This document shows positions 834 through 48,745 of a stretch of 64,000 nucleotides of DNA, piece by piece (the first letter of the stretch is position 1; every line of letters begins with the position of its first letter). The notes under the pieces were generated by a model that was not told where the DNA came from, did no database searches, and was given only the letters and a program-made list of their open reading frames with translations. The stretch is from an uncultured Chloroflexia bacterium (GTDB lineage: Bacteria > Chloroflexota > Anaerolineae > Anaerolineales > UBA4823): positions 26,021 to 90,020 of the forward strand of contig CAWHGE010000007.1 of the NCBI GenBank assembly GCA_963828845.1, read 5' to 3'. A program made the translations under genes and the position numbers.

Positions 834-2026
834 ATGAAAAGCCAAAAGCTTCTTCTTTGCATTTTATGCTTTTCGGTTATATGTGGATGTAGCTCACGCT
901 TAACCTCACCTCCCACGGTGGTATTGCAAACCGAGACTAAAACCGTAGTTGTAACTCATTTGAAAGCAGTTCACAGATTACGCCATCTCCGAAACCGAGA
1001 ATATCTCCTGAAATTGAGCATAGCATCGAAAGACTAGTGAAAAATATTCTAGATGAGGGGATCTTAGCCGGGCTGACAGTAGGCGTACGGTATGGGGATC
1101 AATTGCCTCTTATTGTGGGTTATGGTTATGCTGACAACGAGGCTCAAATACCAGCGGAGGCTGATACTGTTTATATGCTTGGCTCTGTTACCAAGCAGTT
1201 TACTGCGGCAGTAATCATGCATCTAATGGAGCATGGTGCTTTAGGATTGGATGATCCCATCTCACGATATCTCAAAGACATCCCCCAAAGGTGGGAAATT
1301 GTAACTATTCGTCAACTATTAACTCATACCGGAGGAATCCCAAATTATTCCACTGATTCCATGGGATTCGACATTTCGCAATTTTATACACCTGAAGAAT
1401 TGATGGTTAAGTTCACTAAATGGAATTTACTGGACTTTGAACCTGGTACAAGATGGGAATACAGCAACAGGGGTTATTTTCTGTTAGGGATGATCATCAA
1501 ACAAATCACTGGACAAGACTATGGCGATTACCTCCAACAACATATCCTTGGACCTTTGGGTTTGGAAAATACAAAATCATGCATCATACCCGGTCAAAAC
1601 CTGGCGCAGGGATACCGCATCAAGACTCTGGGCGGTGAGATTGAATCAGCCCCTACTGTAAATGCAAGCGTTGCATACGGAGCGGGTGATCTGTGTAGCA
1701 CTGCAGGAGATTTATTGGAATGGCAGGAGGTTTTAGCAACTGGGCGGGTGGTTAGCGAGGAATCCTACCAGATGATGATTAGTCCAATAGAACTTCCTGA
1801 TGGAACACAGACGGGTTATGGTTTTGGTCTAGAAATAGCAGAAAAGGACGGGAGATTGGTGATTTTTCACGCCGGTGGAATACCTTCAGGTTTTATGACA
1901 TTGCTATCCTATTACCCCGAAGAAAATTATCGAATTGTATTATTAACGAATACTATGACCCCTGCATACAATCCTCTAGTTTCACTAGAAAAGTCGATAA
2001 CAGAATCAATATTAACCATCCCATAG
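834..2026 (+). pseudogene. lipoprotein serine hydrolase (beta-lactamase/PBP-related family), one frame break as assembled
   Basis: ORF 834-1037 encodes essentially only a lipoprotein signal (LLLCILCFSVICGCSS). The 1037 frame is open back to 941 (TPSPKPRISPEIEHSIERL) and carries SxxK (SVTKQF) and YxN (YSN) motifs. A break near 900-945 would join signal and enzyme. Confidence 0.6.
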
Positions 2027-2318
2027 ATATATCAGTCATGGACCGAAATTCGGTTTTGCAGGTTAAATAAAATAAACCGTAGGCAGAGAGATTTTATCGA
2101 AACGATAAGGAAGCTCACTCCCAAATCATCGAGCACAACCTAGCAGAGAGTTGTAGACTAATGGTAATATATGATGAATGACACATGACATCCTAATCAC
2201 TCTTTGGTTTAATAATTCGTCTTCTCTGAACTTCCTTGAAAGGATGTCTTGCTAACCCATAAGATCAAATAATAAGTAGATGGATAAACTGTTTCTGAGA
2301 ACCGCAGAGGAGGTATGA

Positions 2319-3435
2319 ATGGCACAATCAGCAGCGAATATCAAGCGAATCGCCATCTGCACTGGAGGGGGTGATGCTCCTGGTTTGAATGCGGTCATCC
2401 GGGCAGCTGTACTCTCAGCCATCAACCGGGACTGGGATGTTTATGGCATCCGCGATGGTTACAATGGGCTTGCTCATGCCTGAACAGTTTATCGAAGGCG
2501 GGTTGATCCGCCTGACACGCGAAAAAGTGCGAGGCATCACTCATCTTGGGGGAACGATCATCGGCACCACCAATCGGGGCAATCCGCTCAAATATCCGAT
2601 CCAAGGACCGGATGATACTGTGATCGAAATCGACCGCTCGGATGAGCTGATTCGTGCCTTTAAGCTGCACCAGATCGATGCACTCATCTCGGTCGGCGGG
2701 GATGGCTCGATGGTAGATTGCCAACGAGCTGGCAAAGAAAGGGCTGTGGGTGGTGGGGGTACCCAAGACGATCGACAATGACCTGGAAAAGACAGTCATT
2801 ACATTTGGTTTTGACACTGCATGTTCATTTACGGTGGAATGCCTGGACCGTCTGCATACCACAGCGGCTTCTCACAACCGTATGATCGTGATGGAAGTTA
2901 TGGGACGATATGCTGGCTGGATCGCACTGGAAAGTGGGCTGGCTGGCTCGGCTGATGTAATCCTGATCCCGGAAATCCCATATGACTTAAGAAGGTTGCT
3001 GAGAAGATCCACGACCGCGAAGAACGGGGAAGCCTGTTTTCCATCGTTGTTGTGGCTGAGGGAGCAAAGCCGAAGGGAGGAAGTATTTCAGTGATCAGCC
3101 GGGAATCAGGACGTGCTGAACGGTTGGGAGGGTGTGGCGAAAAAGTAGCGGAGGAACTACAGGAACTCACTGGTAAGGAAACTCGCCTGGTCGTATTGGG
3201 GCACTTACTGCGAGGCGGTTCACCAACCCGGTTTGACCGCTTGATCGCTCAGCGGTTTGGTGCGGCAGCAGTGCGTGCGATTGCGGATGGTGAGCGGGGC
3301 ATTATGGTAGCACTCGATCCGCCGACGGTTAAATACGTCCCACTGGAAGCTGCCACGAAACGCATGAAAACTGTGCCATTAAATTCAGATATCATGTTGA
3401 CGGCACGTGATATGGGGATCTGTTTTGGAGATTAA
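2319..3435 (+). pseudogene. pfkA: 6-phosphofructokinase (PfkA family), at least 3 frame breaks as assembled
   Basis: Pieces in three frames read colinearly: [29 protein letters not shown] (ATG 2319 after GAGGAGG), [57 protein letters not shown]. Breaks lie near 2460, 2710 and 2990. Confidence 0.85.
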
Positions 3436-3453
3436 GAATCTCCGAATTCACGA

Positions 3454-4111
3454 TCAAAATAGGGAAGTAACCTGATCATCGGTTAATCGATCCATTGTTT
3501 CGACCACAATATCCGCCCTGGTGAGTGCCTCCGGCGGATTTGTGGTTGTGACCGCAATACAGCGCATATTAGCCCGGTAGGCAGCTTCTATCCCTGGGAT
3601 GGAATCCTCGATGACCAGGCAATATTGAGGAGACTCACCAAGTTGCTTAGCAGCAAGAAGGAAAACTGCCGGATCGGGTTTACCGGGTAGGTTACCAGGG
3701 GTAACCAGGGCATCAAAGTACTTACGTATACCCAGCTCATCCACCAGGGTTTCTACATTTTCTGGTGGGGCAGAGGAGGCGACTGCCTGCTTACAGCCCA
3801 ATGATCGAAAACGCCCCAACCAATCCACCACCCCCGGTAAAGGGAAGAGATGACCAGGAAGGGCGAGCCTGAAAGCCAGCTCCTTTTGAGCGGCAATCCG
3901 CTCGATCCATTGCGGTTCCAATGGCCGACCTGCCAGATATGGAAGCAAATCGTGATTCTTTAGGCCGTAGATTTTGTGAAATTTCTGTCTGTCAAATGGT
4001 ATGCCTTGTTCAGTCGAGAACACGTTCCCAGGTTTCGAAATGCAGTGGACTGGTATCTGCGAGCACACCATCCATATCCCATAAAATGGCTTTAGGAAAA
4101 GACATGGGCAT
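3454..4111 (-). pseudogene. HAD-superfamily hydrolase (beta-phosphoglucomutase-like), one frame break
   Basis: The N-terminus MPMSFPKAILWDMDGVLADTSPLHFETWERV (HAD motif I DxDG) is in a different frame from the long ORF. That ORF carries GKPDPAVFL and LVIEDSIPGIEAA (motifs III/IV). The break is near 4020. Confidence 0.75.
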
Positions 4112-4300
4112 GATTGTACCACCGGGATTGATGATATGACTTCACCTTTCTGGAATAAATGGCCGTACCTGAAAAAACAATCTATTAAGGAATGGAATGG
4201 AAATTTCAGGTGGAAGAGATTAATCTCCCCAATTACTCAGGAAATCTTAGCTGGAACTTGACAACCTCTGATAGATTATTATTGGAAAGGAGGATTGACG

Positions 4301-4880
4301 ATGGAAACCCTGGTGAACGCAAAGGATTTAGTGCTCTTTTGGGTGCAGCCGAGGGCTACAAGGCGTAATTTTATCCTAAGGTCGGGTGAAAGGATATTTG
4401 GTAAGCTTGATTTCCGCTCAGGATTTGATTCTCTGGCTGAAGCGATCTCTGCCAATGGGACCTGGACATTCAAACAGGTAGGCTGTTTCTCACCCCATGT
4501 GACAGCACGATGGGCAGGTTCAAATATAGATCTGGTGACCTGTCACACTAGTTGGATTGGAACTGAAAGACAGATGAAATTTTCTAGCGGAGAGATTTAT
4601 CTTTGGAAAGTAGCAAATTTTTGGGCAACCAGCTACACTGTTAGCAGTGGAAGATGGGGTTGAGTTAGTCACTTATCGATCTGGCTCTGACGAGATGAAT
4701 ATTACCAACCTATTCAAACATCAAGCGCAAGTACATATCTCACTTGATGCGTGGCAACTGGCTGAGTTGCACCAAATTGTCTTGCTAGGTTGGTACCTGG
4801 TACTATTGCAACAAGAAGATTCAGCCGCTAGTGGCGGTAACGGGCGCTTTAGGGTGATGGTAGCCAACAGCTTTCTCTGA
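4301..4880 (+). pseudogene. hypothetical protein (two ORF pieces, probably one gene)
   Basis: ATG 4301 lies 8 nt after GGAAAGGAGG. ORFs 4295-4663 and 4647-4880 overlap in different frames and read on as one polypeptide. I recognise no family. Confidence 0.35.
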
Positions 4881-4952
4881 ATGACGATACATCATAAATT
4901 GGGGCATTTATTTTTCAGGATGGTTGTCATATCGTTCAGGTGATACCCTGCC

Positions 4953-4981
4953 TTGAATGCCACCTTCCATTGACTTATAAT
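4953..4981 (+). promoter_or_regulatory. sigma70-type promoter of the arsR operon
   Basis: TTGAAT (4953-4958), a 17-nt spacer, then TATAAT (4976-4981), about 65 nt upstream of the arsR ATG. Confidence 0.5.
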
Positions 4982-5005
4982 ATATTCAGAATATTGAATA
5001 TATTA
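4978..5005 (+). promoter_or_regulatory. ArsR/SmtB-type operator (perfect 11-6-11 inverted repeat)
   Basis: TAATATATTCA-gaatat-TGAATATATTA. It overlaps the -10 hexamer and the expected transcription start, and its TTCA/TGAA cores resemble known ArsR/SmtB operators. Confidence 0.55.
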
Positions 5006-5045
5006 ATGCTCATACTTTTTTGAATGGTGTATTTAAATCAATCCC

Positions 5046-5426
5046 ATGGCAGCAATTACCCCTCCGGCAAATATATTTAAGGCTCTGATGCACCCCTCAC
5101 GACTAACCATCCTGGAAATCCTGCGTGATGGAGAGCAATGCGTTTGTCATCTGGAAGCTGTGTTGGGATGTCGCCAGGCATATATCTCACAGCATTTAAT
5201 GGTGCTGCGCGAAGCCGGTTTGGTTGAAGATCGACGTGATGGAGCGCGCATATACTACCGAGTGATTAAACCGGAAGTATTTAGCCTGGTGGAGGCTGCG
5301 ATCCGGTTGGGTGGCGTAGAAGCTCTTCAAGTGAGCCATTCCAAGGTGAAAGATTGCCCCTGCCCGAAGTGCAATCCATCAGCAGCTGGTAATGATATAA
5401 ATGATGAGATGGTTGGAGAGGATTAG
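5046..5426 (+). CDS. arsR: ArsR/SmtB-family metalloregulator
   Basis: Winged-helix signature PSRLTILEILRDGEQCVCHLEAVLGCRQAYISQHLMVLREAGLV with a CVC motif in helix alpha3. There is an extra C-terminal cysteine cluster, DCPCPKC. Confidence 0.85.
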   Translation: MAAITPPANIFKALMHPSRLTILEILRDGEQCVCHLEAVLGCRQAYISQHLMVLREAGLVEDRRDGARIYYRVIKPEVFSLVEAAIRLGGVEALQVSHSKVKDCPCPKCNPSAAGNDINDEMVGED

Positions 5427-5435
5427 TGCAAGCCC

Positions 5436-5885
5436 ATGATGGATTACCTCGAATTTACAATTGACAAATTTACCTTTAGAACTGCTACCGACCGTTTTTA
5501 TAATGACGAGGGCGTGTGGGCGAAACCAGAAAACAATCATGTTCGCATCGGGATTTCCGATTACTTACAGCAACGCAGTGGTGACGTGGCTTTTGCAGAG
5601 ATCAAGCAGGTCGGGACAACTGTTGCCTTTGGTGATGAACTTGTGGTTATTGAAACCATCAAGGTGAATATCAGTTTGACGTCACCGGTGGCAGGCAGGG
5701 TGGTTGAGGTTAATCCAGCGATGGAGACCTCACCGGAAGTCATCAATCAGGACCCATACGAGGCTGGATGGCTGGTGATAATCGAAGCTATAGAATGGGC
5801 AATCGATCGGAAGCATTTATTAGAACCGCAAGCTTATTTCGCCAAAATAAAGCTGGAGGCTGATCAGGAGGTCAAGAAAGAATGA
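5436..5885 (+). CDS. glycine-cleavage H-like lipoyl/biotinyl carrier protein
   Basis: GcvH fold signature: VRIGISDYLQQ, then DELVVIETIKVNISLTSPVAGRVVEVN with the conserved carrier lysine (ETIKV). It starts 9 nt after the arsR stop. Confidence 0.75.
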   Translation: MMDYLEFTIDKFTFRTATDRFYNDEGVWAKPENNHVRIGISDYLQQRSGDVAFAEIKQVGTTVAFGDELVVIETIKVNISLTSPVAGRVVEVNPAMETSPEVINQDPYEAGWLVIIEAIEWAIDRKHLLEPQAYFAKIKLEADQEVKKE

Positions 5886-6316
5886 CTAATATCGGTCAAA
5901 AAGGTAAGGTCATCATCGTCCCCTGCAGCGGAATTGGTAAAACCTATGGCACTGTCAGCCGCCAAGCCGCGTATAGCGTCACAGAAGATTTACGACCCGA
6001 TGATACACGATTAGTAGCGCTTTCTAAATTGGTCCTGGGAGATGAAGAGGCACGTTCCATAGTAGGAGTTAATCCTGCCATCACCATAGATGGCTGTAAG
6101 TTAGCGTGTGCCACAAAAATGGTGCGGGAAAGTGGCGGAAGGATCGCACGGGATTATGCCGTTTTGGATGTATACCGCCGGTATAAGCAATTTAAACCAC
6201 AAGGTATTGCTGAGCTGAATGCTGGTGGGGAGCAGTTGGCTCTTGCTCTGGCAAATGAGATCATTCAGGTGGTGGATGAGCTTATCTCCATCAAGGGAGG
6301 AGAAGAAAATGGTTGA
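5882..6316 (+). CDS. DGC-domain putative zinc-binding protein
   Basis: VIIVPCSGIGKTYG ... ITIDGCKLAC matches the Pfam DGC family layout (CSG near the N-terminus, DGC motif followed by Cys). It overlaps the upstream stop by 4 nt. Confidence 0.7.
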   Translation: MTNIGQKGKVIIVPCSGIGKTYGTVSRQAAYSVTEDLRPDDTRLVALSKLVLGDEEARSIVGVNPAITIDGCKLACATKMVRESGGRIARDYAVLDVYRRYKQFKPQGIAELNAGGEQLALALANEIIQVVDELISIKGGEENG

Positions 6317-7052
6317 CCTGCCTAAGAAGAAAGTAGGGATTGTTGCTTGCTCGGGAGAGGAATTAGCTGAAGGCACTGTCACACGCCTGGCAGCCTTGCG
6401 GGTGCTGGAAAAATTGCGGCCGAGCGATACTGTAACCATCTGTCTGCCGCTTTTTTTAGCGGGTGGTGAGGGTGACCGGGCTTTTGCGAAATTCTACCCG
6501 ACGATCTCGGTAGATGGGTGTGAGCTGCGTTGCGCAGAAAAGGCTACTGCGAAATATTCAAATAAACCGGCGGCGAGTATCATGGTGCGGGATTTGATAC
6601 ATGAAAATCAGCTCGACCAACCGCAAGGGCAACGCCGCTTGAATACCGCTGGAGTACGAGCGGTTGACATCACAGCGGAGAAGATTGCAAACACAGTCGA
6701 TGAGCTGTTAGGAAAGCAATGGAACCGCAAGCTGGGAGAGCTCATCCAGCTTGAGACAATCGATGAGTATCAAACGAAGACGGATCAAGAACAAGACATA
6801 GCCACCTGTGGGTGTGGCTCTGGGATACCCATCCAGAATGTAATCATTGCAGGAAAGGAAGTAACACTTGTCGGATTGCCACTGATATTTCAACAATTTG
6901 CCGAAGCGGGAAAAACCCCCACCGAAGAAAATGTGGGAGAACTGATGGACACTCTCAAAATATACAATTCAATTCCTGATGAAGAAGAATTAGCATATAG
7001 GGATGCCATACGAAAAGCATACATGAATTTTTGGTTCAAGGAAAAAGATTGA
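6309..7052 (+). CDS. DGC-domain protein, longer paralogue with extra C-terminal domain
   Basis: ATG 6309 (ATGGTTGA overlap with the upstream stop). VGIVACSGEELAEG ... ISVDGCELRC, plus a C-terminal part with CGCGSG. The ORF-track start 6219 is an in-frame upstream extension. Confidence 0.7.
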   Translation: MVDLPKKKVGIVACSGEELAEGTVTRLAALRVLEKLRPSDTVTICLPLFLAGGEGDRAFAKFYPTISVDGCELRCAEKATAKYSNKPAASIMVRDLIHENQLDQPQGQRRLNTAGVRAVDITAEKIANTVDELLGKQWNRKLGELIQLETIDEYQTKTDQEQDIATCGCGSGIPIQNVIIAGKEVTLVGLPLIFQQFAEAGKTPTEENVGELMDTLKIYNSIPDEEELAYRDAIRKAYMNFWFKEKD

Positions 7053-7522
7053 TGAGCCAAATTTCCACCTATCATACGATCGTCTCATGGAAGGGTGAGC
7101 ACTTAGGGCACATCACCATGGGCAACGGACCCGAAATGGAATTTTCAGCGCCGCCCGATGCCAAAGGACTGCCTGGTGTGCTTACCCCTGAAGACGCATT
7201 TGTGGGTGCGGTGAATACTTGCATCATGATGATGTTTCTGTGGTCATGTGAACGATTAAAATTGAAGTTGGTATCATATGAATGCCATGCTGAAGGCACC
7301 AAACTGGTTGAGCTGGATCATACTGAAGTATTCGCTATAATTCGCCTTTTTCCTGAAATCCGCGTGATGGCTGGTGATGAGATGCCTACCAGCGTCGAAG
7401 CTCGAATTCAAAGGGCGTTGAAATCAGCGCAAAAGTATAGTCTGGTGGCAAATTCAATCAAGTCGGAGGTGATGATTGACCCGATAATTGAGGTCATTGA
7501 AAGTACCAAAGGAGCAAACTAG
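7052..7522 (+). CDS. OsmC/Ohr-family protein
   Basis: About 156 aa with typical OsmC features (SAPPDAKGLPGVLTPEDAFVGAVNTCIMMMF, second Cys in YECHAEG). ATG 7052 overlaps the upstream TGA. Confidence 0.7.
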   Translation: MSQISTYHTIVSWKGEHLGHITMGNGPEMEFSAPPDAKGLPGVLTPEDAFVGAVNTCIMMMFLWSCERLKLKLVSYECHAEGTKLVELDHTEVFAIIRLFPEIRVMAGDEMPTSVEARIQRALKSAQKYSLVANSIKSEVMIDPIIEVIESTKGAN

Positions 7523-7575
7523 GTTTTCAAGGTAATCAGGCAAACTATTTACATTTTTTTCTTAGGAGGTTCGTA

Positions 7576-7878
7576 ATGCTTACTGTAAAAGTTCTAGGAT
7601 CAGGTTGTGAAAATTGCAAAAAGGTCGAGGGGATCGCGCGCAAAGTGGTAACCATGATGGGCATGCAGGCGGAAGTGATCAAGGTGACCGACTGGACAGA
7701 GATAAAAAAGTACCCCATATTAGGGACACCCGGACTGGTAATCAATGAAAAGGTTGTTTGCGCTGGACGCATCCCAACTGAAGCCGAGGTCACCACTTGG
7801 CTGGTAAACGCTGAGATGGCAGACAGCTTAAAATGGCTACCTCCAAAGCTTCTGCTATTGACCAAGCTGGGGGTGTAG
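7576..7878 (+). CDS. small thioredoxin-fold protein (redox-active disulfide protein 2 type)
   Basis: [16 protein letters not shown] ... [17 protein letters not shown] is the classic ~77-aa family often found beside arsenic permeases. AGGAGG SD. The last ~23 aa are an unusual extension overlapping acr3. Confidence 0.75.
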
Positions 7879-8912
7879 TTCGCCAGCTATCCTTTCTTGA
7901 CCGATATCTTACCCTATGGATCTTCCTGGCAATGGTGGTAGGCGTTGGACTGGGGTATTTATTTCCAGAGGCGGTGAAAACCTTCAACTTGCGAGTTTCA
8001 GTTGGGACGACCAACATCCCGATTGCCATCGGTTTGATCCTGATGATGTACCCTCCCCTGGCAAAAGTGCATTATGACGAATTGGGAGATGTCTTTAAGA
8101 ATTGGAAAGTCTTGGGTTTGTCGCTGGTGCAAAACTGGGTGATTGGTCCGATCTTGATGTTCGTTCTGGCAATCGTCTTCCTACGAGCTTACCCGGCGTA
8201 TATGGTAGGTTTGATTATGATTGGCTTGGCTCGCTGCATTGCCATGGTGATCGTGTGGAATGAGCTGGCGAAGGGAGACACGGAATACGCGGCCGGTCTG
8301 GTGGCATTCAACAGCATTTTCCAGGTCTTATTCTATAGCGTTTACGCTTATGTATTCATCACAATCCTGCCTACCTGGTTTGGCTTGCATGGGAGTATCG
8401 TAGCCATCACGATTGGTCAGATTGCCAAAAGTGTGTTTATCTACCTGGGGATTCCATTTATTGCAGGTTTCATCACCAATATGGTCTTGACCCGCACCAA
8501 AGGGAAAGACTGGTTTTACAAAAAATTCATCCCCAAGATCAGCCCCCTAACCCTGATCGCATTGCTCTTTACCATTGTAGTCATGTTCAGCTTGAAGGGT
8601 AATCTCATTGTCACCATCCCGCTGGATGTTGTGCGCATCGCCATCCCATTACTGATCTACTTTGTGATCATGTTCCTGGTAAGTTTTGCAATGGGCAAAT
8701 TGGTTGGCGCAGACTACAAACAGACGACCACGCTGTCGTTCACTGCGGCCAGCAATAACTTCGAGCTGGCGATTGCCGTAGCCGTGGCAGTGTTTGGGAT
8801 CAATTCGGGAGAAGCCTTCACGGCGGTAATAGGCCCATTGGTAGAGGTACCGGTGATGATTGGTTTGGTGAATGTGGCTTTCTGGTTGAAGAAGAGATTA
8901 TTTAGCGGATGA
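7833..8912 (+). CDS. acr3: ACR3-family arsenite efflux permease
   Basis: 359 aa, about 10 hydrophobic helices. N-terminal [16 protein letters not shown], then MMYPPLAKV and [14 protein letters not shown] motifs characteristic of ACR3. Confidence 0.9.
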
Positions 8913-9175
8913 TTGATCTAAAGATTCTCAGTTATCATTCCGCTCAGCGTTATGCGGTTAGACAAACCGTGGTGGCAGCACAGAGAATCCTACAAAATGA
9001 ATACCCAGGATTGAAAATTGTCATCACAGAGTTGAAAGACTGGGTTCACATTGAACAATATACACCGGTACTATCAGCGCCGAGCCTGGTGGTGAACGAA
9101 AAGCTGGTTTGTGTGGGCAGATTTCCATCAAAGCAGGAAATACTCGATTGGATGAAGAAGGCAATTGGAGAATGA
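8909..9175 (+). CDS. thioredoxin-fold paralogue lacking the CxxC motif
   Basis: Same fold register as 7576 ([26 protein letters not shown]), but the GxGCxxC position reads SYHSAQR. The start overlaps the acr3 stop by 4 nt. Confidence 0.6.
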
Positions 9176-9211
9176 ATAGGAATGGTCAAGTAAAAAATAT
9201 ACCCCGTTTGT

Positions 9212-9747
9212 ATGCTTAGGGAAAATATCAATATGTTCCTTGAATCGATCACCTTGACCAAAATCTTACCTTGCCTGGCGGAACCTGGCAAGATCATTGT
9301 GATCGGTGAGCCATCACAGAAGCTGGATGACGTGCTACCCTATCTGGCTACTCTACCCAATGTGATCTCTTACAATCCCGATACCTGCACGCTGACTCTT
9401 CGTCGCCAACCGGGATTCATCTCCCTGTATTCCAATAAAGCTTATATCACTAAGGTAAAGGACACTGAAGAGGGGTTGGAATTATTCCAAGCACTGGTGG
9501 ATGCCATCAATGCAACCTGGAAACACCGGGATGAGCTGGTGGCGATGACCTCTCGTAAACATGCTCCACGCCCGCTGGATATATGGACCTTACTCCCACA
9601 AACTAATTGTAAAAAATGTGGAGAGGCAACCTGCATGGCATTTGCCTGCAACTTGCTATTACAACAACGAACTCTGAAGAATGCTTGCCGTTACGGCAAG
9701 ACGTGGCCTTCTCTGAGCGAATGGCGACCCTGGAGACAATGCTTTAA
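9212..9747 (+). pseudogene. 4Fe-4S-domain (CFeSP/RnfB N-terminal type) protein, C-terminal 24 aa shifted as assembled
   Basis: LPQTNCKKCGEATCMAFACNLL. After a 1-nt shift near 9674-9680 the sequence reads EECLPLRQDVAFSERMATLETML-TAA (stop 9745-9747), restoring C-x2-C-x4-C-x16-C. The same C-terminal sequence recurs at 12700-12790. Confidence 0.6.
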
Positions 9748-9748
9748 C

Positions 9749-11014
9749 ATGACTGAAAAGACTTACGCCACTATCGATGAAAAGGGTAGGATTATTCTTC
9801 CGCAAAGTATGATCGATCAGTGGGGAATTTCGCAAGGCGGGCGCGTATCGGTAGAATCCGATGGATTTGGTCTTCGACTTCACCCGCCTATTACGAGCTT
9901 AAGACGGGTGTATATTGAAATCACCAACCAGTGTAACTTGAATTGCAGCACCTGCATGCGTAATGTTTGGGATGTGGAATATGGCCGCATGACAAGGGAA
10001 ACCTTCGAACAAATCCTTTCTGGGTTCCAATCCTGCTCTCCAAAACCGAATATATTTATTGGAGGATATGGCGAACCACTCTCTCACCCAGAATGCCTTA
10101 CGATGATCAAGCAGGCTAAATCGCTTGGTGTTCATGTTTCCCTAATCACAAATGGCATCCTGCTAACCGAAGATGTCGCACGAAGTTTAATTGGTACGGG
10201 ATTGGACATGCTATGGGTTTCGCTGGATGGTGCTTCACCAGAATGTTACACGGATGTTCGTCTTGGGAATGCTTTACCAGTCATCCTCGAAAACCTAAAT
10301 CGTTTAAGATCACTACAATATCGGTATTATGGATTTTTCCCCTGGACCATGCTCCCAAAACTAGGAATTGCTTTTGTTGCCATGAGGCGCAATATCCACG
10401 ATTTACCTGAAGTAGTCAGACTGGGAACAAAACTAGGCGCGGTAGAATATTCGATCAGTAATGTCCTGGCGCATAATAGCTCTTTGGGCGAGGAAAGCCT
10501 ATACTCGCGGTCCATGAATTATATTTACGGTCCTTATGCCAACCATTGGAGGCCGTTGGTCCGTTTCCCCATAATCGATATAGATAGAAGTACGGAAAAT
10601 GTGATCATTGAGCTGCTTAGGAACTCCAATCGACTGGAATTGATGGGCAATGAACTGAGAGGAAATGGAGATCAGTGCCCGTTTGTTGAAAGAGGCAGCC
10701 TTTCCATTCGCTGGGATGGAAAGGTTAGCCCCTGTTTACCACTGCTTTATACACACACGTATTTCCTGGACAAACGAGAACGTACATCCCGAGAATATTT
10801 CGTTGGTGATATTCATAAAAACGATTTATACGATATATGGAATAACGCTGATTATCAAACCCTAAGGTTGCACCTTCAGGATTTTGATTTTTCTCCTTGC
10901 ACATCCTGTAATAGTTGTGAAATGGCGGATGGAAATCTTGAGGATTGCTATGGAAACACCCATCCGACTTGTGGTGGCTGTTTATGGGCACAAGGGTTTA
11001 TCCGCTGCCCATGA
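9749..11014 (+). CDS. AbrB/SpoVT-domain - radical SAM - SPASM-domain enzyme
   Basis: ATG 9749 lies 2 nt after the restored upstream stop. The N-terminal swapped-hairpin-like IDEKGRIILPQSMIDQWGISQGGRVSVE is followed by the CNLNCSTC (CX3CX2C) cluster motif. The Cys-rich C-terminus (CPFVERG..PC, CTSCNSCEMADGNLEDCYGNTHPTCGGCLWAQGFIRCP) is typical of SPASM auxiliary clusters. Confidence 0.8.
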   Translation: MTEKTYATIDEKGRIILPQSMIDQWGISQGGRVSVESDGFGLRLHPPITSLRRVYIEITNQCNLNCSTCMRNVWDVEYGRMTRETFEQILSGFQSCSPKPNIFIGGYGEPLSHPECLTMIKQAKSLGVHVSLITNGILLTEDVARSLIGTGLDMLWVSLDGASPECYTDVRLGNALPVILENLNRLRSLQYRYYGFFPWTMLPKLGIAFVAMRRNIHDLPEVVRLGTKLGAVEYSISNVLAHNSSLGEESLYSRSMNYIYGPYANHWRPLVRFPIIDIDRSTENVIIELLRNSNRLELMGNELRGNGDQCPFVERGSLSIRWDGKVSPCLPLLYTHTYFLDKRERTSREYFVGDIHKNDLYDIWNNADYQTLRLHLQDFDFSPCTSCNSCEMADGNLEDCYGNTHPTCGGCLWAQGFIRCP

Positions 11015-11130
11015 AAGAATGGTGTGGAAAAACTCTCTGATTTAAGGTGGCACTTCATTGAACAATCAAAAAGAAAAATCACCCCACACGATTGATGTAT
11101 CAACTACAACGCGCTGCATCTGGGTGACTC

Positions 11131-11307
11131 TTGGAGGCCTCGGAGGTGATTGAGCTCAAGCGCATCGCAATGGATCGGGATGTGGACAGTGCGGTTAGCT
11201 TCTTTTATGATGTGCTGACCCCACGCGTGCGTACCGCAGCCTTGCAGCGGAAGGTTGGGCTGGAAATGCTCGTGGAGAATAAAAATAATGAGCATATATC
11301 TGGATAA
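11131..11307 (+). CDS. small hypothetical ORF (~58 aa), weak paralogue of 12433-12597
   Basis: Below the ORF-track cutoff. TTG 11131 (alternatives GTG 11146, ATG 11170). LEASEVIELKRIAMDRD...ALQRKVG is colinear with the second mini-ORF. It overlaps the desulfurase start by 20 nt. Confidence 0.3.
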   Translation: MEASEVIELKRIAMDRDVDSAVSFFYDVLTPRVRTAALQRKVGLEMLVENKNNEHISG

Positions 11308-12424
11308 CGCGGCCACGAGCTGGCCCAAACCAGAGTTAGTTTATCAAGCTGTTGATAATTTCATGCGCAAAGTCGGTGCTACCCCCGGTCGTGGTGGTCA
11401 CCGGCGGGAGGAAGATGCCGCACACATCGCCGATCAAACACGAGATGCCATAGCTGAACTTTTCCATGCCCCCGACCCTACGGGTGTGGCTTTTACTATG
11501 AATGCTACCCAGGCAATCAATATGGCACTTAAAGGTTTGTTGCGCTCAGGTGATCATGTTATCACCACATCTATTGAGCATAACGCCATGTGGCGTCCAC
11601 TGAAAGCACTGGAACGAGGCGGGGTCGTTATAACAGAGATCACCTGCGCCTCAGATGGTACTCTCCACCCTAAAGATGTTGAGGCAGCAATCCGACCGGC
11701 AACACGGTTAATTGCCATGTTGCACGCCTCGAATGTGTTGGGAACGATCCTTCCTATTGATGCTGTAGGTGCGATAGCCAAGAAGCATGGCATATCCTTC
11801 CTTGTGGATGCGGCGCAAACAGCTGGAGCATATCCAATTGACATGCTAGGAATGAATATCGACCTATTGGCGTTTTCAGGTCATAAGGGACTGTATGGCC
11901 CGCATGGCACGGGTGGCTTGGTTGTCCGCCCTGGCATCAGGCTAGAGACATGGATCGAAGGTGGATCTGGAGTTGAATCAACTCCAGAGACCATGCCGGA
12001 GGCGCTACCACTACGCCTGGAAGCGGGAACACAAAATGCGGCTGGTATTGCTGGATTGATGGCAGGAGTAGCCTTTGTTCAGAAACTAGGGGTTGAGCAT
12101 ATACGCGATCGCGAAATGGCTCTGACCACCTTGCTTATCAATGATCTGAGTAATATGCCAGGCCTGACCATCCTGGGGCCGGTTGACCTGACCCAACGCA
12201 CGGCGGTTGTATCCGTCACCATCGAAGGTTACGTCCCTGACCAACTCGCTGCAGTACTGGATCAGGTTTTCGATATAGCAACGCGTGCTGGGTTGCATTG
12301 CTCACCCCAAGCTCATCGCACGGCAGGGACACTGGAGAGTGGTGCATTGCGCTTCAGTCCAGGCTATTTCACAACGGAGGACGAAATCCACGAAGCAGCT
12401 GAAGCGCTTCGGAGTATCCTATAG
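11288..12424 (+). CDS. class V aminotransferase, cysteine desulfurase/selenocysteine lyase family
   Basis: Starts MSIYLDNAATSWPKP. PLP lysine in FSGHKGLYGP and active-site Cys in RAGLHCSPQAH (SufS/CsdA-like). The ORF-track start 11255 is an upstream extension. Confidence 0.8.
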   Translation: MSIYLDNAATSWPKPELVYQAVDNFMRKVGATPGRGGHRREEDAAHIADQTRDAIAELFHAPDPTGVAFTMNATQAINMALKGLLRSGDHVITTSIEHNAMWRPLKALERGGVVITEITCASDGTLHPKDVEAAIRPATRLIAMLHASNVLGTILPIDAVGAIAKKHGISFLVDAAQTAGAYPIDMLGMNIDLLAFSGHKGLYGPHGTGGLVVRPGIRLETWIEGGSGVESTPETMPEALPLRLEAGTQNAAGIAGLMAGVAFVQKLGVEHIRDREMALTTLLINDLSNMPGLTILGPVDLTQRTAVVSVTIEGYVPDQLAAVLDQVFDIATRAGLHCSPQAHRTAGTLESGALRFSPGYFTTEDEIHEAAEALRSIL

Positions 12425-12432
12425 GAAGAGCT

Positions 12433-12597
12433 ATGGCAAAACAACGCATCGAAAAGACCCTGGTAATCCTTGACGAAGCTGAAGTGCGCCAATTACTACA
12501 AATAGCGCAGCGGAAAGATAGGCTGGAAATCCAACAATATATGATGAAGGTTTTCATCAAAAAAGTCGAGGCAGTACTACGCCGAAAGTGCGGGTAA
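12433..12597 (+). CDS. small hypothetical ORF (54 aa)
   Basis: ATG 12433 lies 8 nt after the desulfurase stop. MAKQRIEKTLVILDEAEVRQLLQIAQRKD...VLRRKCG. Below the ORF-track cutoff. Colinear weak similarity to 11131-11307. Confidence 0.35.
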   Translation: MAKQRIEKTLVILDEAEVRQLLQIAQRKDRLEIQQYMMKVFIKKVEAVLRRKCG

Positions 12598-12598
12598 A

Positions 12599-12790
12599 TG
12601 GCTAAAAGAACAGGAGAAAATCAAAAAATCCTATTCTCATGTTAGCCTTAGCCATCCAACAAAGGCGACCTGTATGGCATTTGCGTGCAAGCTGTTATAA
12701 CAGGAACGGGAGCTGGAGGAATGCACTCCACTGCATGCGGATGTAGGCTGTACTGAACGACGGGCAACCCTGGAAGCGATGTTAGTGTAA
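12599..12790 (+). pseudogene. decayed second copy of the 4Fe-4S-domain C-terminus
   Basis: Reads ...HPTKATCMAFACKLL*QERELEECTPLHADVGCTERRATLEAMLV with an in-frame TAA at 12698-12700. The first two Cys of the cluster motif and any start codon are missing. Confidence 0.45.
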
Positions 12791-12834
12791 GATTTCGCTG
12801 ATCAGGTTTAAATCCATGCTATGATTAAATTGTA

Positions 12835-13296
12835 ATGGGGAGGGGAAATGCCCCATTTCACGGAGATGCATTCATGTGGTACAACACGATCACGGTTTGG
12901 CTGCTGCACTCACCCCTGCATGGAATGTTCAGTGGGAATACGATGGTGTTAGGGTACGCCGGGCGGAAAAGTGGCAAGACTTATCATTTACCAGTCGATT
13001 ATTTTCGGGTGGGTGAAACACTGCTAACCGTCAGTTACAAGAGGCGCATATGGTGGCGCAACCTGCGCGGTGGAGCATCAGTGACCACCTACCTGCAGGG
13101 AAAAGAAGTCAACGGGCATGCGGAAGTGATCGAGGATGAGGTGGGGGTGGTGGATGGATTGAAGGCTATAATCGGGGGAAAAAAGCAAGCAGCACGCATA
13201 TTCGGGGTGAAACTGAGTGCGGATGGTCAGCCCGACCCTGAAACCTTGCGACAAGCGGCGAGTGAGCGTGTTATTGTGCGTACATCTTTGCAATGA
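12835..13296 (+). CDS. DUF385/deazaflavin-dependent nitroreductase-like protein
   Basis: GRKSGKTYHLPVDYF...IWWRNLRGGASV follows the F420H2-dependent reductase (Ddn-like) pattern. The true start may be ATG 12874. Confidence 0.6.
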   Translation: MGRGNAPFHGDAFMWYNTITVWLLHSPLHGMFSGNTMVLGYAGRKSGKTYHLPVDYFRVGETLLTVSYKRRIWWRNLRGGASVTTYLQGKEVNGHAEVIEDEVGVVDGLKAIIGGKKQAARIFGVKLSADGQPDPETLRQAASERVIVRTSLQ

Positions 13297-13787
13297 AAGA
13301 TTCTCCCCGGTTTCCTGTCGTTTTCTGGCGGATAATGAGCAGATTGAACCGGTGGATGCTCTCCAGGTATGGACCAAAGAGCAAGGTAGCTGGCAAGGTG
13401 TTGGTGCTGACAACCATTGGGAGGAAATCTGGTGAACCACGCTCAACCCCATTACAATTTGAGCAGGTGGAGGGTGTGTATTATGTAGCCTCCGCACGCG
13501 GTGTAAAAGCAGATTGGTATCGCAATCTGGTGGCATGCCCAAAGGTAGATGTTCAGATCGGAGACGTGCGTTTCTCTACGCTTGCTGAACTAATGAACGA
13601 TCCCGGTCCGATCGCTGATTTCCTGGAGTTACGTTTGAAAAGACACCCCCTTTTTATGGGTGTCATGTTGAGGCTTGAGGGGTTACCGCGTAAATACACC
13701 CGCACTGAGCTGGAGAAGTTTAGCAAGCGGCTGGCAATTGTGACCCTTCGTAAGGACCCCCAAGAATATCGGAATGTTGAAGGATGA
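13293..13787 (+). CDS. DUF385/deazaflavin-dependent nitroreductase family protein
   Basis: LVLTTIGRKSGEPRSTPLQFEQVEGVYYVASARGVKADWYRNLVACPKV is the canonical family signature. 4-nt overlap with the upstream paralogue. Confidence 0.75.
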   Translation: MKDSPRFPVVFWRIMSRLNRWMLSRYGPKSKVAGKVLVLTTIGRKSGEPRSTPLQFEQVEGVYYVASARGVKADWYRNLVACPKVDVQIGDVRFSTLAELMNDPGPIADFLELRLKRHPLFMGVMLRLEGLPRKYTRTELEKFSKRLAIVTLRKDPQEYRNVEG

Positions 13788-14928
13788 GCCAACGAACACG
13801 GTTTTAAGCTACCAGCCGAAAACCATCCTCAATAAGGGCAAACGCGCAGATCATTGGTTTTGGACGCGATACAGCGCATACCCGTACCTGGGATGCCAGC
13901 ACGGCTGCGCTTTTTGTTATTGCAGAGAGCGAAAATATATCCCTCATAAGCCACAGGAAGCTGATACCGTCTATGATGGAGAAGCGGATGAATTCTCCCA
14001 TCTCATTAAAATCAAGGAAAATGCGTCCCAACTCTTACGTAAAGCACTCGGGCGCGTACCCGTGGATATGGTTTTTACGGGTGATTATCAGGCTGCAGAG
14101 CGTAAATTCAAACTCTCGCGCCAAATGCTGGAAGTGTGTTTGGAGCTTGGCTTTCCGGTCTTCGTGCTCACCCGCTCACCGCTGGTGTTGCGTGATTTAG
14201 ATCTGTTCAAGGCTATCAATCAGCGTTCCAGAGCGGTGGTAGCGTTCAGTATCATATCCACGCCGGATTCACCCGGTTACTTGCATATGTCACAAATGGA
14301 AGGATTAGCTCCTGCTGCCGAGAAGCGCTTCAAAGCCATGGAGGAATTTGCACAGGCGGGCATCCTCACTGGAACTATTGCCATGCCGTTGCTGCCTGGC
14401 TTGTGTGATGACGATCGAAACCTGCAAGCTTTGGCAATATGGACTGCCGGGCACGGAGGAAAGTTCATCCTTGGAGGAGGGCTGACCCTGGCGGACCAGC
14501 AGAAAGAATTCTTCATGGACGTTCTGCGCCAGAATCATCCCGATCTGCTTTCACTCTATACACGCTTGTATCCTGAAGGGAGCTACTCTCAAACCCAACC
14601 ATGGCATAAAGTAGGTTTACGCGTTCGTGAATATTGCCAGCGGGAAAATATCTCAGACCGTATACCGCGCCCGGTGATCCCAGGAGAAAAACGTTATTTG
14701 AATAAACGCATCGTGGAACAGCTGGCAAACACGCTTTATACATTAGAATTGGAAAATGGGAGCCCGAACCGTATTTGGGCTTACCGAAAAGCAGCTTGGG
14801 CAGTTGAAGATCTGGAGCAGGATATTGGATTGGTCTACCGCACGATGGGGGCGAAAGGTTTAGAGAGCCTTCCAAACGTCAGCGCACAAATCGCGAAGGA
14901 AATTGAATCAATTCTGCGTAATGATTGA
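13774..14928 (+). CDS. radical SAM protein, SplB/DNA-photolyase-like, with C-terminal helix-hairpin-helix
   Basis: YLGCQHGCAFCY (CX3CX2C). The C-terminus RIWAYRKAAWAVEDLEQDI...GLESLPNVSAQIAKEIESIL resembles the PolX-type HhH DNA-binding module. It overlaps the upstream gene by 14 nt. Confidence 0.7.
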   Translation: MLKDEPTNTVLSYQPKTILNKGKRADHWFWTRYSAYPYLGCQHGCAFCYCRERKYIPHKPQEADTVYDGEADEFSHLIKIKENASQLLRKALGRVPVDMVFTGDYQAAERKFKLSRQMLEVCLELGFPVFVLTRSPLVLRDLDLFKAINQRSRAVVAFSIISTPDSPGYLHMSQMEGLAPAAEKRFKAMEEFAQAGILTGTIAMPLLPGLCDDDRNLQALAIWTAGHGGKFILGGGLTLADQQKEFFMDVLRQNHPDLLSLYTRLYPEGSYSQTQPWHKVGLRVREYCQRENISDRIPRPVIPGEKRYLNKRIVEQLANTLYTLELENGSPNRIWAYRKAAWAVEDLEQDIGLVYRTMGAKGLESLPNVSAQIAKEIESILRND

Positions 14929-15379: not shown

Positions 15380-17039
15380 TTACACCCAGGCAGGCGAATG
15401 ATATTCTCCGAACACCTGGCGGAGAACTGAGCAGATTTCGCCTAAGGTAACGTCATTCTCTACACATTCAATGAATATAGGCATTAGGTTTTCATCACTT
15501 TTGTTAGCAGCGTTTTCTAGCTGGCTGAGGAGCTGACTCACTTTACCAGCATCACGTTGAATTCGTAAAACTTGTAGATGATTCCGTTGTGATTGCTCAA
15601 TTGCGGGATCAACCTTCAATCGCTCGAGAGTGATTTTTTCATCACTTTGGAAAGTATTGACCCCCACGATCAATTGTTCTCCTTTTTCGATTGCCTGTTG
15701 AGTATGGTAGGCTGCATCCTGGATCTCTCCCTGAATGTAACCCTGCTCGATTGCCTTAAGTGCACCACCTAGCTCATCGACCTTTTGGATGTACTCGAGT
15801 GCACGGTTCTCGATTTCGTCGGTCAGGTATTCAATCAGGTAGGAGCCTGCCAGTGGATCGATGGTATCAGTTATACCGGATTCATGAGCAATGATCTGCT
15901 GAGTACGCAGAGCGACCCGGACGGATTTTTCTGTCGGCAGCCACAAGGCTTCGTCCATACTATTGGTGTGCAAGGATTGTGTCCCCCCGAGCACAGCAGC
16001 CAAAGCTTGTAGCGAAACTCGCACTACATTATTCTCCGGCTGTTGAGCAGTGAGGGTCGAGCCGCCAGTTTGGGTGTGAAAACGAAGCATCATCGAGCTT
16101 TCTTGCCTGGCAGCAAAACGGTCACGCATAATGCGAGCCCATAGTCTGCCGCGCTGCTCGGAATTTTGCTACCTCTTCCAAAAAGTTATTGTGTGCGTTG
16201 AAAAAGAAAGAAAGCTGCCCGGCAAATTCGTCAATATCCAATCCTGCCTGGAGGGCAGCTTGAACATATGCGATGGCATTAGCCAAGGTAAAAGCTAGTT
16301 CCTGGACTGCGGTTGACCCAGCTTCGCGGATATGATAGCCGGAGATGCTTATGGTATTCCAGTGAGGGAGCTCCTTTTGGCAATAACGGAAAACATCAGT
16401 AACCAGGCGCATGGATTGGGTCGGGGGAAAGATATATGTTCCGCGGGCGATATATTCCTTCAAGATGTCATTTTGGATCGTTCCCCTGAGGGCTGTAATT
16501 TTCACACCTTGACGCCTGGCGACGGCAATATACATCGCCAACAGGATGGCTGCTGGTGCATTAATGGTCATGCTGGTGGAGACTTTATCGAGCGGGATCT
16601 GATGGAACAGCGTTTCCATATCATCCAGGGATGAAATCGAAACACCCACTTTGCCCACTTCACCCTGAGACATGGGATCATCGGCATCGAAACCGATCTG
16701 GGTGGGCAGGTCAAACGCCACCGAGAGGCCGGTTTGTCCTTGTTCAAGCAGGTAGCGATAACGGCGGTTTGACTCTTCAGACGTGGCATAACCAGCATAC
16801 TGGCGCATAGTCCAAAAGCGCCCACGGTACATGGTGGGTTGGACGCCGCGAGTATAAGGATATTCTCCTGGAAAACCGAGTTGATCCATATAATCTGGAT
16901 CCGGGTCTGGGGGAGTTAGCAGGGGGGGTAGTGGAATGCCTGAAGGCGTCTGAAATTCGGGCTTGCGTTCATGTAAATGATGATCATGCGAATGCGATGT
17001 ACGTTCTTCCCAGCGCTTTCTTTCATTTTCCAAGGTCAT
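15380..17039 (-). pseudogene. methylmalonyl-CoA mutase catalytic (N-terminal) subunit, one frame break
   Basis: The two ORFs (16122-17039, 15380-16129) are colinear: [32 protein letters not shown], then (shift near 16138-16151) [33 protein letters not shown]. No B12-binding domain is present. Confidence 0.85.

Positions 17040-46820: not shown

Positions 46821-48745
<1,925 letters not shown>

Follow-up and report, generated by a model that had tools for sequence, protein, structure and literature searches.

Does the long open reading frame (ORF) at positions 9212–11014 on the forward strand of a 64,000-nucleotide stretch of DNA from an uncultured Anaerolineales bacterium (Chloroflexota; contig CAWHGE010000007.1, positions 26,021 to 90,020; hereafter the window) encode one protein or two? 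In the sequence as given the ORF runs uninterrupted for 600 amino acids (aa). An initial annotation, made from the letters of the window, had proposed that it artificially fuses a 4Fe–4S protein to a radical S-adenosylmethionine (SAM) enzyme with an AbrB-like N-terminus and a SPASM tail. Our analysis bears this proposal out: homologues of the two parts are separate genes, and a base that the window lacks is present in all three of the related contigs that were aligned to it (L085, L002 and L001). The 600-aa ORF is thus very probably an artificial join of two separate genes, read through after the loss of one base, in an arsenic (ars) gene cluster headed by ArsR. The fused ORF is an ordinary artefact, while the arsenic linkage of the enzyme family that it conceals is a modestly novel lead.

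One reading frame, two genes

In the frame as given, the cluster motif of the first part reads C-x2-C-x4-C-x17-C (NCKKCGEATCMAFACNLLLQQRTLKNAC) and continues into MTEKTYATIDEKGR, and the translated protein contains ...LPQTNCKKCGEATCMAFACNLLLQQRTLKNACRYGKTWPSLSEWRPWRQCFNMTEKTYATIDEKGR... This frame loses both the spacing of the fourth cluster ligand and the conserved C-terminal helix of the Fe–S protein. The neighbouring frame near 9676 reads ...EECLPLRQDVAFSERMATLETML, also written ...NSEECLPLRQDVAFSERMATLETML, and is followed by a TAA at 9745–9747, a C at 9748 and an ATG at 9749. Splicing the two frames near 9676 yields C-x2-C-x4-C-x16-C. A one-base shift somewhere near 9674–9680 had been predicted to restore exactly this spacing, and the prediction could be made precise. 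In DNA alignments with L085, L002 and L001 the window is each time one base short at 9675/9676, where Leu codon 148 lacks its third base; this base is T in L085 and G in L002 and L001. Here L085 has ACT CTT GAA GAA TGC (T-L-E-E-C), against ACT CT- GAA GAA TGC in the window. L085 (JGI Ga0153915_10011946) is a metagenome contig with 97.4% identity to window positions 1421–9765, and L002, a metagenome contig with 85% identity to the window, likewise carries the base missing after 9675. With this single base restored, the match to PF04060 grows from 27 of 33 profile positions and 32.2 bits to all 33 positions and 41.5 bits, against a gathering score of 23.

The homologues of each part support the division. 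The repaired Fe–S protein has 1,948 database relatives, of which the best 120 are 151–189 aa long (mostly 171–172 aa, at most 88% identical); homologues of 171–175 aa align with it over its whole length, including the fourth cysteine and the C-terminal helix with its ERxATLEAML tail. The enzyme has 4,021 relatives, and the best 120 of these measure 352–467 aa, mostly 417–421 aa; those of 352 aa are short gene calls, the ORF of L002 being intact at 421 aa from the ATG after the Fe–S stop. E-values of homologues are 1e-96 for the Fe–S protein and 1e-238 for the enzyme, and judged by these alignments the signal for a split is far beyond chance. Orthologues that are true 600-aa fusions were also sought. 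Searches with the product of either gene returned no homologue of about 600 aa, and when 1.84 billion cluster representatives were scanned with HMMER, 289 relatives came up at E ≤ 1e-30; the best 150 of these reach 476 aa at most. All orthologues proved to be separate proteins, and a natural fusion was rejected. The 600-aa protein is unfit for propagation in annotation.

Where do the two genes begin and end? Although 9212 is indeed the start of the ORF, as the initial annotation had it, homologue alignment places the real start of gene 1 at ATG 9233 (MFLESI...). Gene 1 accordingly spans 9233–9747 and encodes 171 aa once the base is restored, and gene 2, intact at 421 aa, occupies 9749–11014, both on the forward strand. 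Gene 1 stops and gene 2 starts in a TAA-C-ATG junction at 9745–9751, with the same TAACATG in L002, and the two signals overlap or abut in five further loci (L006, L009, L014, L048 and L087). This arrangement suggests that translation of the two genes may be coupled.

Origin of the missing base

Is the loss at 9676 a property of the organism or of its sequence record? Insertions and deletions (indels) elsewhere in the window are informative. Alignment with L085 reveals 12 gaps, nine of them in coding DNA and all of those frameshifting. These nine one-base frameshifts fall in the PFK gene (three), a HAD hydrolase gene, the gene of a 218-aa protein (three), the tail of the ArsE gene and the Fe–S gene, and at all nine sites L085 sides with the more distant L002. 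As a control, L085 and L002, which are 84% identical, differ by 9 gaps, none of which lies in coding DNA, indicating that natural divergence keeps indels out of genes. The indels of the window ignore coding, with 9 of 12 inside genes at a coding fraction of 0.90. Frames are also broken in p82, a gene downstream of the enzyme gene, at 11129, in the methylmalonyl-CoA mutase gene at 16149 and in the DnaK gene near 48300. The indel sites (2472, 2715, 2991, 4015, 4218, 4653, 4830, 7822, 9676, 11129, 13805, 16149 and ~48300) lie outside long homopolymers, and insertions account for 8 of 11 listed sites. One-base indels in the window thus number at least 12, and since they hit coding as often as non-coding DNA, the deletion at 9676 is most likely a sequencing or assembly error rather than the mark of a natural fusion. 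Frame correction is needed before any inference at the level of ORFs or genes is drawn from this window.

A deletion that is real in the organism would mean either a true 600-aa fusion or a fresh pseudogene of the Fe–S protein with chance read-through in frame, and we consider this very unlikely. It has in its favour that the given sequence does encode an unbroken 600-aa ORF and that this part of the genome is subject to change, as an insertion scar at 12662–12787 shows (see below). The call of an error rests on contigs of relatives, and a strain-level mutation at 9676 keeps a small probability. However, such a deletion would have destroyed the ligand spacing and the helix that homologues conserve, L085 retains the base at 97% identity, and homologues of about 600 aa were not found in the searches. 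Moreover, 9 of the 12 window-specific indels break conserved genes, including those for PFK and the ars genes, and the DnaK and mutase genes are broken as well, whereas the more divergent natural pair L085/L002 differs by no coding indel at all. Programmed –1 ribosomal frameshifting at 9670–9680, which would produce the 171-aa protein and the fusion from one message, has a negligible probability. Conserved protein sequence does occupy two overlapping frames around 9676, but a slippery heptamer is absent at ACUCUGAAG, the relatives use a single frame with no shift, and frame breaks are frequent in unrelated genes of the same window; we rejected it for these reasons. A sequencing or assembly error thus stands as the preferred explanation of the missing base.

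The Fe–S protein

The repaired product of gene 1 consists of an N-terminal alpha/beta domain (residues 1 to about 110, with a conserved Cys14) followed by a C-terminal [4Fe–4S] domain of the CFeSP/RnfB type, whose motif C126-x2-C129-x4-C134-x16-C151 is encoded at 9608–9684. A profile of the family, searched against the PDB, retrieves the N-terminal [4Fe–4S] domain of the CFeSP large subunit (4djd and 2h9a, E 3.5e-6; 4c1n, about 4e-6), and RnfB models are matched weakly. An AlphaFold2 model of residues 1–100 (predicted local distance difference test, pLDDT, 82–96) shows a beta-sheet with a long helix. The best Foldseek matches of this domain, single lobes of the TATA-binding protein (TBP), are weak (E 0.017–0.2), and the domain is TBP-like only in this weak sense. 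Homologues carry the JGI label ‘ArsR family metal-binding transcriptional regulator’. We rejected an ArsR-family identity, as Pfam and NCBIfam gave no helix–turn–helix match and the predicted beta-sheet with its long helix is not a winged helix.

Might this small protein serve the enzyme encoded next to it? The PF04060-type [4Fe–4S] domain relays electrons in CFeSP. The initial annotation had envisaged a dedicated Fe–S partner that donates electrons to the enzyme, and this proposal is weakened by the distribution of the two genes, each of which is common without the other. That the Fe–S protein is the dedicated reductant delivering the electron for SAM cleavage now seems unlikely to us. The homology of its C-terminal domain to the electron-relay [4Fe–4S] domains of CFeSP and RnfB speaks for such a role, as does the overlap or close contact of the two genes' stop and start codons in the window, L002, L006, L009, L014, L048 and L087, and loci with this coupled arrangement group together in the tree. 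Against it, an Fe–S gene was found no more than 6 kb from the enzyme gene at 5 of 82 enzyme loci, and the enzyme is present in one of 80 Fe–S-centred loci. In these 80 metagenome loci a thioredoxin (Trx)-like gene was counted in 37, acr3 in 31, a tandem second Fe–S gene in 19 and the radical SAM enzyme in 1; the Fe–S gene mostly comes after the Trx-like gene and is often duplicated in tandem. Three loci (L001, L086 and L089) retain the Fe–S gene, p82, a desulfurase gene and p54 with no enzyme gene, and the order Fe–S gene then enzyme gene is confined to the subclade of the window (the six loci just named as coupled). On this distribution we regard the Fe–S protein as an ars-cluster gene in its own right, which would be at most a subclade-specific electron donor; coupled translation within the subclade leaves room for such a local role.

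Several observations on the neighbours of the Fe–S gene deserve mention. Tandem Fe–S loci include L106, L108, L112, L124, L126, L128, L130, L131, L135 and L136. The Trx-like gene at 8909–9175 is the commonest upstream neighbour of the Fe–S gene (36 of 66 loci); it matches the C-terminal half of the MTH895/ArsE model only (36 bits, cut-off 62) and is without the N-terminal CxxC of arsE. The module formed by p82, the desulfurase gene (TIGR01977) and p54, at 11058–12597 in the window, accompanies the Fe–S gene with or without the enzyme (L001, L086, L089 and L100). The proteins p82 and p54 are alike (…EA(S/E)EV..L..IA…) and have no Pfam or NCBIfam match. We considered them as substrate peptides of the enzyme and rejected this, given that they accompany the desulfurase and Fe–S genes where the enzyme is absent.

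A scar of insertion downstream

The C-terminal peptide of the shifted frame occurs a second time in the window, and the initial annotation had taken the copy, at 12700–12790, for an independent occurrence that supports the shifted reading. The copy is real and does support the choice of frame, but it is a scar of insertion and not an independent gene. It is part of the decayed 3' end of an Fe–S gene (codons 131–171) at 12662–12787 on the forward strand, with a coding part at 12662–12784, a stop at 12785–12787 and an in-frame TAA at 12698–12700. The remnant reads ATCMAFACKLL, a stop, QERELEECTPLHADVGCTERRATLEAMLV and a second stop, and is 66–68% identical to residues 131–171 of the Fe–S protein. 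As a gene of its own it was rejected, being a 41-codon fragment with an internal stop that is continuous with the DNA natively found downstream of the Fe–S gene in relatives.

How did the remnant arise? It aligns with the 3' end and the native downstream spacer of intact Fe–S genes in L110, L109 and L116, and in these loci, as in L093, the intact gene runs directly into the DNA that the window has from 12663 onward. Relative to this layout the window holds an inserted module at 9661–12661, comprising an Fe–S 3' end, the radical SAM gene, p82, the desulfurase gene and p54, and the join lies at the conserved GAGGCAACCTGCATGGCATTTGC stretch. The layout of the L110-type relatives and the start of homology at GAGGCAACCTGCATGGCATTTGC indicate that the block entered by recombination at that motif. 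The comparison with these relatives indicates that the old Fe–S 3' end was left to decay after the insertion. Window positions 12598–13272 are absent from L002; they hold the Fe–S remnant and part of an extra F420H2_quin_red-type paralogue at 12835–13296, which adjoins the conserved copy of that type at 13293–13787.

The enzyme and its AbrB-like module

Gene 2 encodes an AbrB-like/radical SAM/SPASM protein that aligns without gaps to its L002 orthologue at 87% identity. It exceeds the Pfam gathering scores for Radical_SAM (PF04055, 60.9 against 29.5 bits) and SPASM (PF13186, 56.3 against 21.5 bits). The CX3CX2C motif formed by C62, C66 and C69, the ligands of the radical SAM [4Fe–4S] cluster, is encoded at 9932–9955 and is invariant in an alignment of 44 sequences. 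Nine further cysteines are invariant in the same alignment (310, 329, 384, 387, 390, 400, 408, 411 and 420). They define the SPASM region at 10676–11011 and, judged by their number, should suffice for two auxiliary clusters. When the whole enzyme model was submitted to Foldseek, it matched BlsE, PqqE, SuiB, SkfB, DesII and anSME at E of about 1e-12 to 1e-10 with a probability of 1.00.

The first 50 residues, encoded at 9749–9898, are predicted to form a swapped-hairpin half-barrel of the AbrB/SpoVT type, as the initial annotation had recognised. PF04014 (MazE/AbrB) is matched by 30 of 44 family members at E ≤ 0.01 (best 1.5e-6), and some match AbrB-like or MraZ models. A profile of residues 1–52 finds PhS018 (2.9e-8), AbrB (1e-4), SpoVT (1e-3) and Abh in the PDB, with E-values of 3e-8 to 2e-3 overall. 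The AlphaFold2 model has the topology beta-beta-alpha-beta-beta (strands 8–9, 15–16, 34–37 and 42–45, helix 19–25; pLDDT 71–89). What counts against the assignment is that the enzyme of the window itself reaches 23.0 bits with PF04014 (residues 7–39), just under the gathering score of 24.7. Does the module bind DNA? The arginines reported to be critical when AbrB binds DNA are R8, R15, R23 and R24, and the corresponding positions are basic in 0%, 34%, 3% and 37% of the enzyme family. As these arginines are not conserved, DNA binding in the manner of AbrB is unlikely, and a role of the module in recognising a peptide or protein, as originally suggested, is a plausible candidate.

The initial annotation had also listed the maturases associated with tungsten-cofactor oxidoreductases among the families to compare. 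This proved apt: the best curated match is TIGR04317 (‘tungsten cofactor oxidoreductase radical SAM maturase’), aligned over profile positions 2–349 of 349, yet its 278.4 bits stay below the cut-off of 380. The next-best NCBIfam match is TIGR04311, and no curated NCBIfam model reaches its cut-off with the enzyme or with its relatives encoded beside tungsten oxidoreductases of the AOR family. Relatives linked to AOR and relatives linked to ars genes score alike on TIGR04317 (267–300 bits). Adjacency to an AOR-family tungsten oxidoreductase is presumably the defining context of TIGR04317, a family that was defined by bioinformatics and for which we know of no published biochemistry. In the 64-kb window AOR, MoaA and MoeA were not found by tblastn, and Pfam found none in the ten largest other ORFs. 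True membership of TIGR04317 was rejected on account of the score under the cut-off and of an ars context in place of an AOR one. The subfamily, which is mainly from Anaerolineae, is a sister of the TIGR04317 maturases. More distant representatives (35–46% identity, 355–385 aa) are without the AbrB domain. Our literature search found no description of ars-linked SPASM enzymes, of AbrB-radical SAM fusions or of the tungsten maturase family; the enzyme family is previously undescribed and lies mostly inside Anaerolineae ars operons.

Five AOR-linked loci (L054, L061, L066, L069 and L077) contain AOR, a 264-aa protein, a MoaD-like protein, MoaA and an AbrB-radical SAM-SPASM gene, with MoeA in some, around positions 6000–12000 of each locus. 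Their paralogues too fall below the TIGR04317 cut-off, and the Anaerolineae branch seems to escape the NCBI model of the very family to which it belongs.

The arsenic operon context

The two genes lie in a run of 13 co-directional genes on the forward strand (5046–12597) with intergenic gaps of at most 57 nt. Their order is arsR, a gcvH-like gene, two DGC genes, OsmC, arsE, acr3, a second Trx-like gene, the Fe–S gene, the radical SAM gene, p82, a cysteine desulfurase family gene and p54. The arsE gene, whose copy is at 7576, encodes a thioredoxin-like protein of the MTH895/ArsE family (86.8 bits, cut-off 62), and the desulfurase family gene matches TIGR01977 (443 bits, cut-off 377). The window is collinear with L002 and L001. 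The best promoter-like site, at 4953–4981, lies just upstream of arsR, and a scan for terminators gave terminator-like sites no commoner than expected by chance.

Other features of the cluster are of interest in themselves. The block of gcvH-like, DGC, DGC and OsmC genes (5436–7519) separates arsR from arsE/acr3 in many ars clusters of Anaerolineae, and it also occurs in L015, L055, L058, L064, L072, L076 and L083 and in many Fe–S-centred loci. A lipoyl-carrier-like protein in an ars operon is intriguing, because arsenite targets dithiols. Just downstream of the cluster lies a second, unrelated radical SAM gene at 13774–14928 (Rv2578c/PA0069-like, below the cut-off), which is kept at that place in L001, L002 and many Fe–S-centred loci.

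How general is the association of the enzyme with arsenic genes? A scan of GTDB species representatives yielded 80 loci with full-length relatives at 47–65% identity, nearly all from Anaerolineae, and the loci include those of two cultured strains, Bellilinea caldifistulae GOMI-1 (L067) and Longilinea arvoryzae KOME-1 (L078). We then took a census, by tblastn within 6 kb of the enzyme gene, of 82 loci. An arsE-like Trx was present in 45, arsR in 43, acr3 in 30, arsC in 25, arsP in 19 and the Fe–S gene in 5. With AOR and molybdenum cofactor (Moco) queries added, 62 loci had ars genes only, 13 had AOR, MoaA or MoaD only, none had both and 7 had neither. The AOR-linked relatives also have the AbrB domain, and a neighbour-joining tree puts them together as one clade inside the ars-linked sequences. 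One metagenome-assembled genome (MAG) holds both types (L007 and L062), and the ars link is retained in two MAGs labelled Bacteroidota and Holophagaceae (L030 and L080). Given that the surroundings of the enzyme gene are arranged very differently from locus to locus, and that MAGs labelled with other phyla keep the link, the association points to a functional tie to ars rather than to frozen synteny. Two points weigh against this reading: loci were picked by their likeness to the protein of the window, which biases the 62:13 ratio toward the ars-linked type, and the tree carries no support values.

What might the enzyme do?

The initial chemistry would be that of the radical SAM superfamily. 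SAM would be cleaved reductively at the cluster held by C62, C66 and C69, and the 5'-deoxyadenosyl radical would then take a hydrogen atom from the substrate, with two auxiliary clusters presumably housed in the SPASM tail. Since the AbrB module is a single half-barrel, it would be expected to pair with a second copy, so that the enzyme may form a dimer, offer a protein-binding (not DNA-binding) cradle, or both. Our preferred reading, to which we give a little less than even chances, is that the enzyme is an arsenic-induced paralogue of the TIGR04317 maturase, whose target would be a protein or cofactor with thiol or dithiolene groups that arsenite attacks. It speaks against this reading that neither a conserved small ORF nor a gene for a candidate substrate is seen with the enzyme at every locus.

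Alternatively, the enzyme might not be a maturase and might act directly on an arsenical, as an O2-independent lyase or former of C–As bonds or in As–S chemistry. The persistent linkage to ars operons in strict anaerobes is compatible with this, as is the occurrence of arsP, whose annotation is that of an organoarsenical efflux permease family, at 6 kb or less from the enzyme gene in 19 of the 82 loci. It also fits that the module inserted in the window contains a cysteine desulfurase family gene. No precursor-peptide gene accompanies the enzyme, and the spacings of the loci leave no room for one. Furthermore, the known C–As lyase, ArsI, requires O2. We nevertheless find direct arsenical chemistry doubtful, as TIGR04317 and TIGR04311, its nearest relatives, are putative metalloenzyme maturases, and the enzyme is no closer to known radical SAM enzymes of arsenic, ArsS being outside the 25 best NCBIfam matches listed. 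In addition, the AOR/Moco-linked paralogues are about 50% identical and have the same architecture, which suggests a shared, non-arsenical type of substrate.

In a broader frame, it is possible, though we hold it only tentatively and think it rather improbable, that the ars-operon clade represents an unrecognised arsenic detoxification of strict anaerobes. This would consist either of O2-independent C–As or As–S chemistry or of repair or maturation of a dithiol or dithiolene cofactor or protein poisoned by arsenite; both forms would trace back to a gene duplicated and recruited from a lineage of W/Mo-cofactor maturases. Anaerobic transformations of arsenic matter in paddy soils and aquifers, and to our knowledge anaerobic arsenic demethylation is still without identified enzymes. 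A radical enzyme under ars regulation is a concrete, testable candidate for such a transformation. A radical SAM/SPASM subfamily with an AbrB-like N-terminus stands in the ars operons of dozens of Anaerolineae species, two cultured strains among them, and the split between ars-linked and AOR-linked members could provide a handle on the function of the ‘tungsten maturase’ family.

Comparison with known systems

How do the two proteins relate to systems already described? The Fe–S protein shares the C-x2-C-x4-C-x16-C motif, and with it all 33 positions of PF04060, with the large subunit of CFeSP (AcsC/CdhE) and with RnfB. It differs from both in that its [4Fe–4S] domain is C-terminal, sits behind an unrelated alpha/beta domain and belongs to a stand-alone protein of 171 aa encoded in ars clusters.

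The N-terminal module of the enzyme has the signature V-D-x-x-G-R-[IV]-x-[LI]-P...[LF]-G-[LI] and the predicted topology of the AbrB/SpoVT/MazE domain, but here the domain is joined to an enzyme and not to a regulator or the tail of an antitoxin. The remainder adopts the same fold as anSME, PqqE, SuiB, SkfB, BlsE and DesII, a TIM-barrel-like radical SAM core with auxiliary cluster domains, at an identity of merely 13–17% to these structurally characterised SPASM/twitch enzymes. Maturases of peptides made by the ribosome and modified after translation (RiPPs), such as SuiB, have a PqqD-like RiPP recognition element (RRE) at the N-terminus, where our enzyme has the AbrB-like half-barrel; nor does a gene for a precursor peptide adjoin that of our enzyme. 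A RiPP maturase was rejected, as Pfam and NCBIfam gave no RRE/PqqD match and the gaps of ~0–90 nt to the ars neighbours leave no room for a small ORF.

ArsS, of arsenosugar biosynthesis, and ArsL, of arsinothricin biosynthesis, are likewise radical SAM enzymes encoded with arsenic genes. ArsL is not known to have a SPASM domain, and neither is known to have an AbrB domain; they are not the families closest to our enzyme, and ArsS stands outside the 25 best NCBIfam matches listed. The closest curated resemblance is to TIGR04317. The CX3CX2C core and a Cys-rich SPASM tail ending in CGGCLWAQG-I-CP are common to both, and the AOR, MoaA and MoaD-like context of that family is seen in 13 related Anaerolineae loci. 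The enzyme described here departs from it in carrying an additional AbrB-like domain of 50 aa, N-terminal to and outside the 349-position model, and in its company, for in the window, as in 62 of the 82 loci, it is surrounded by genes of the ars system.

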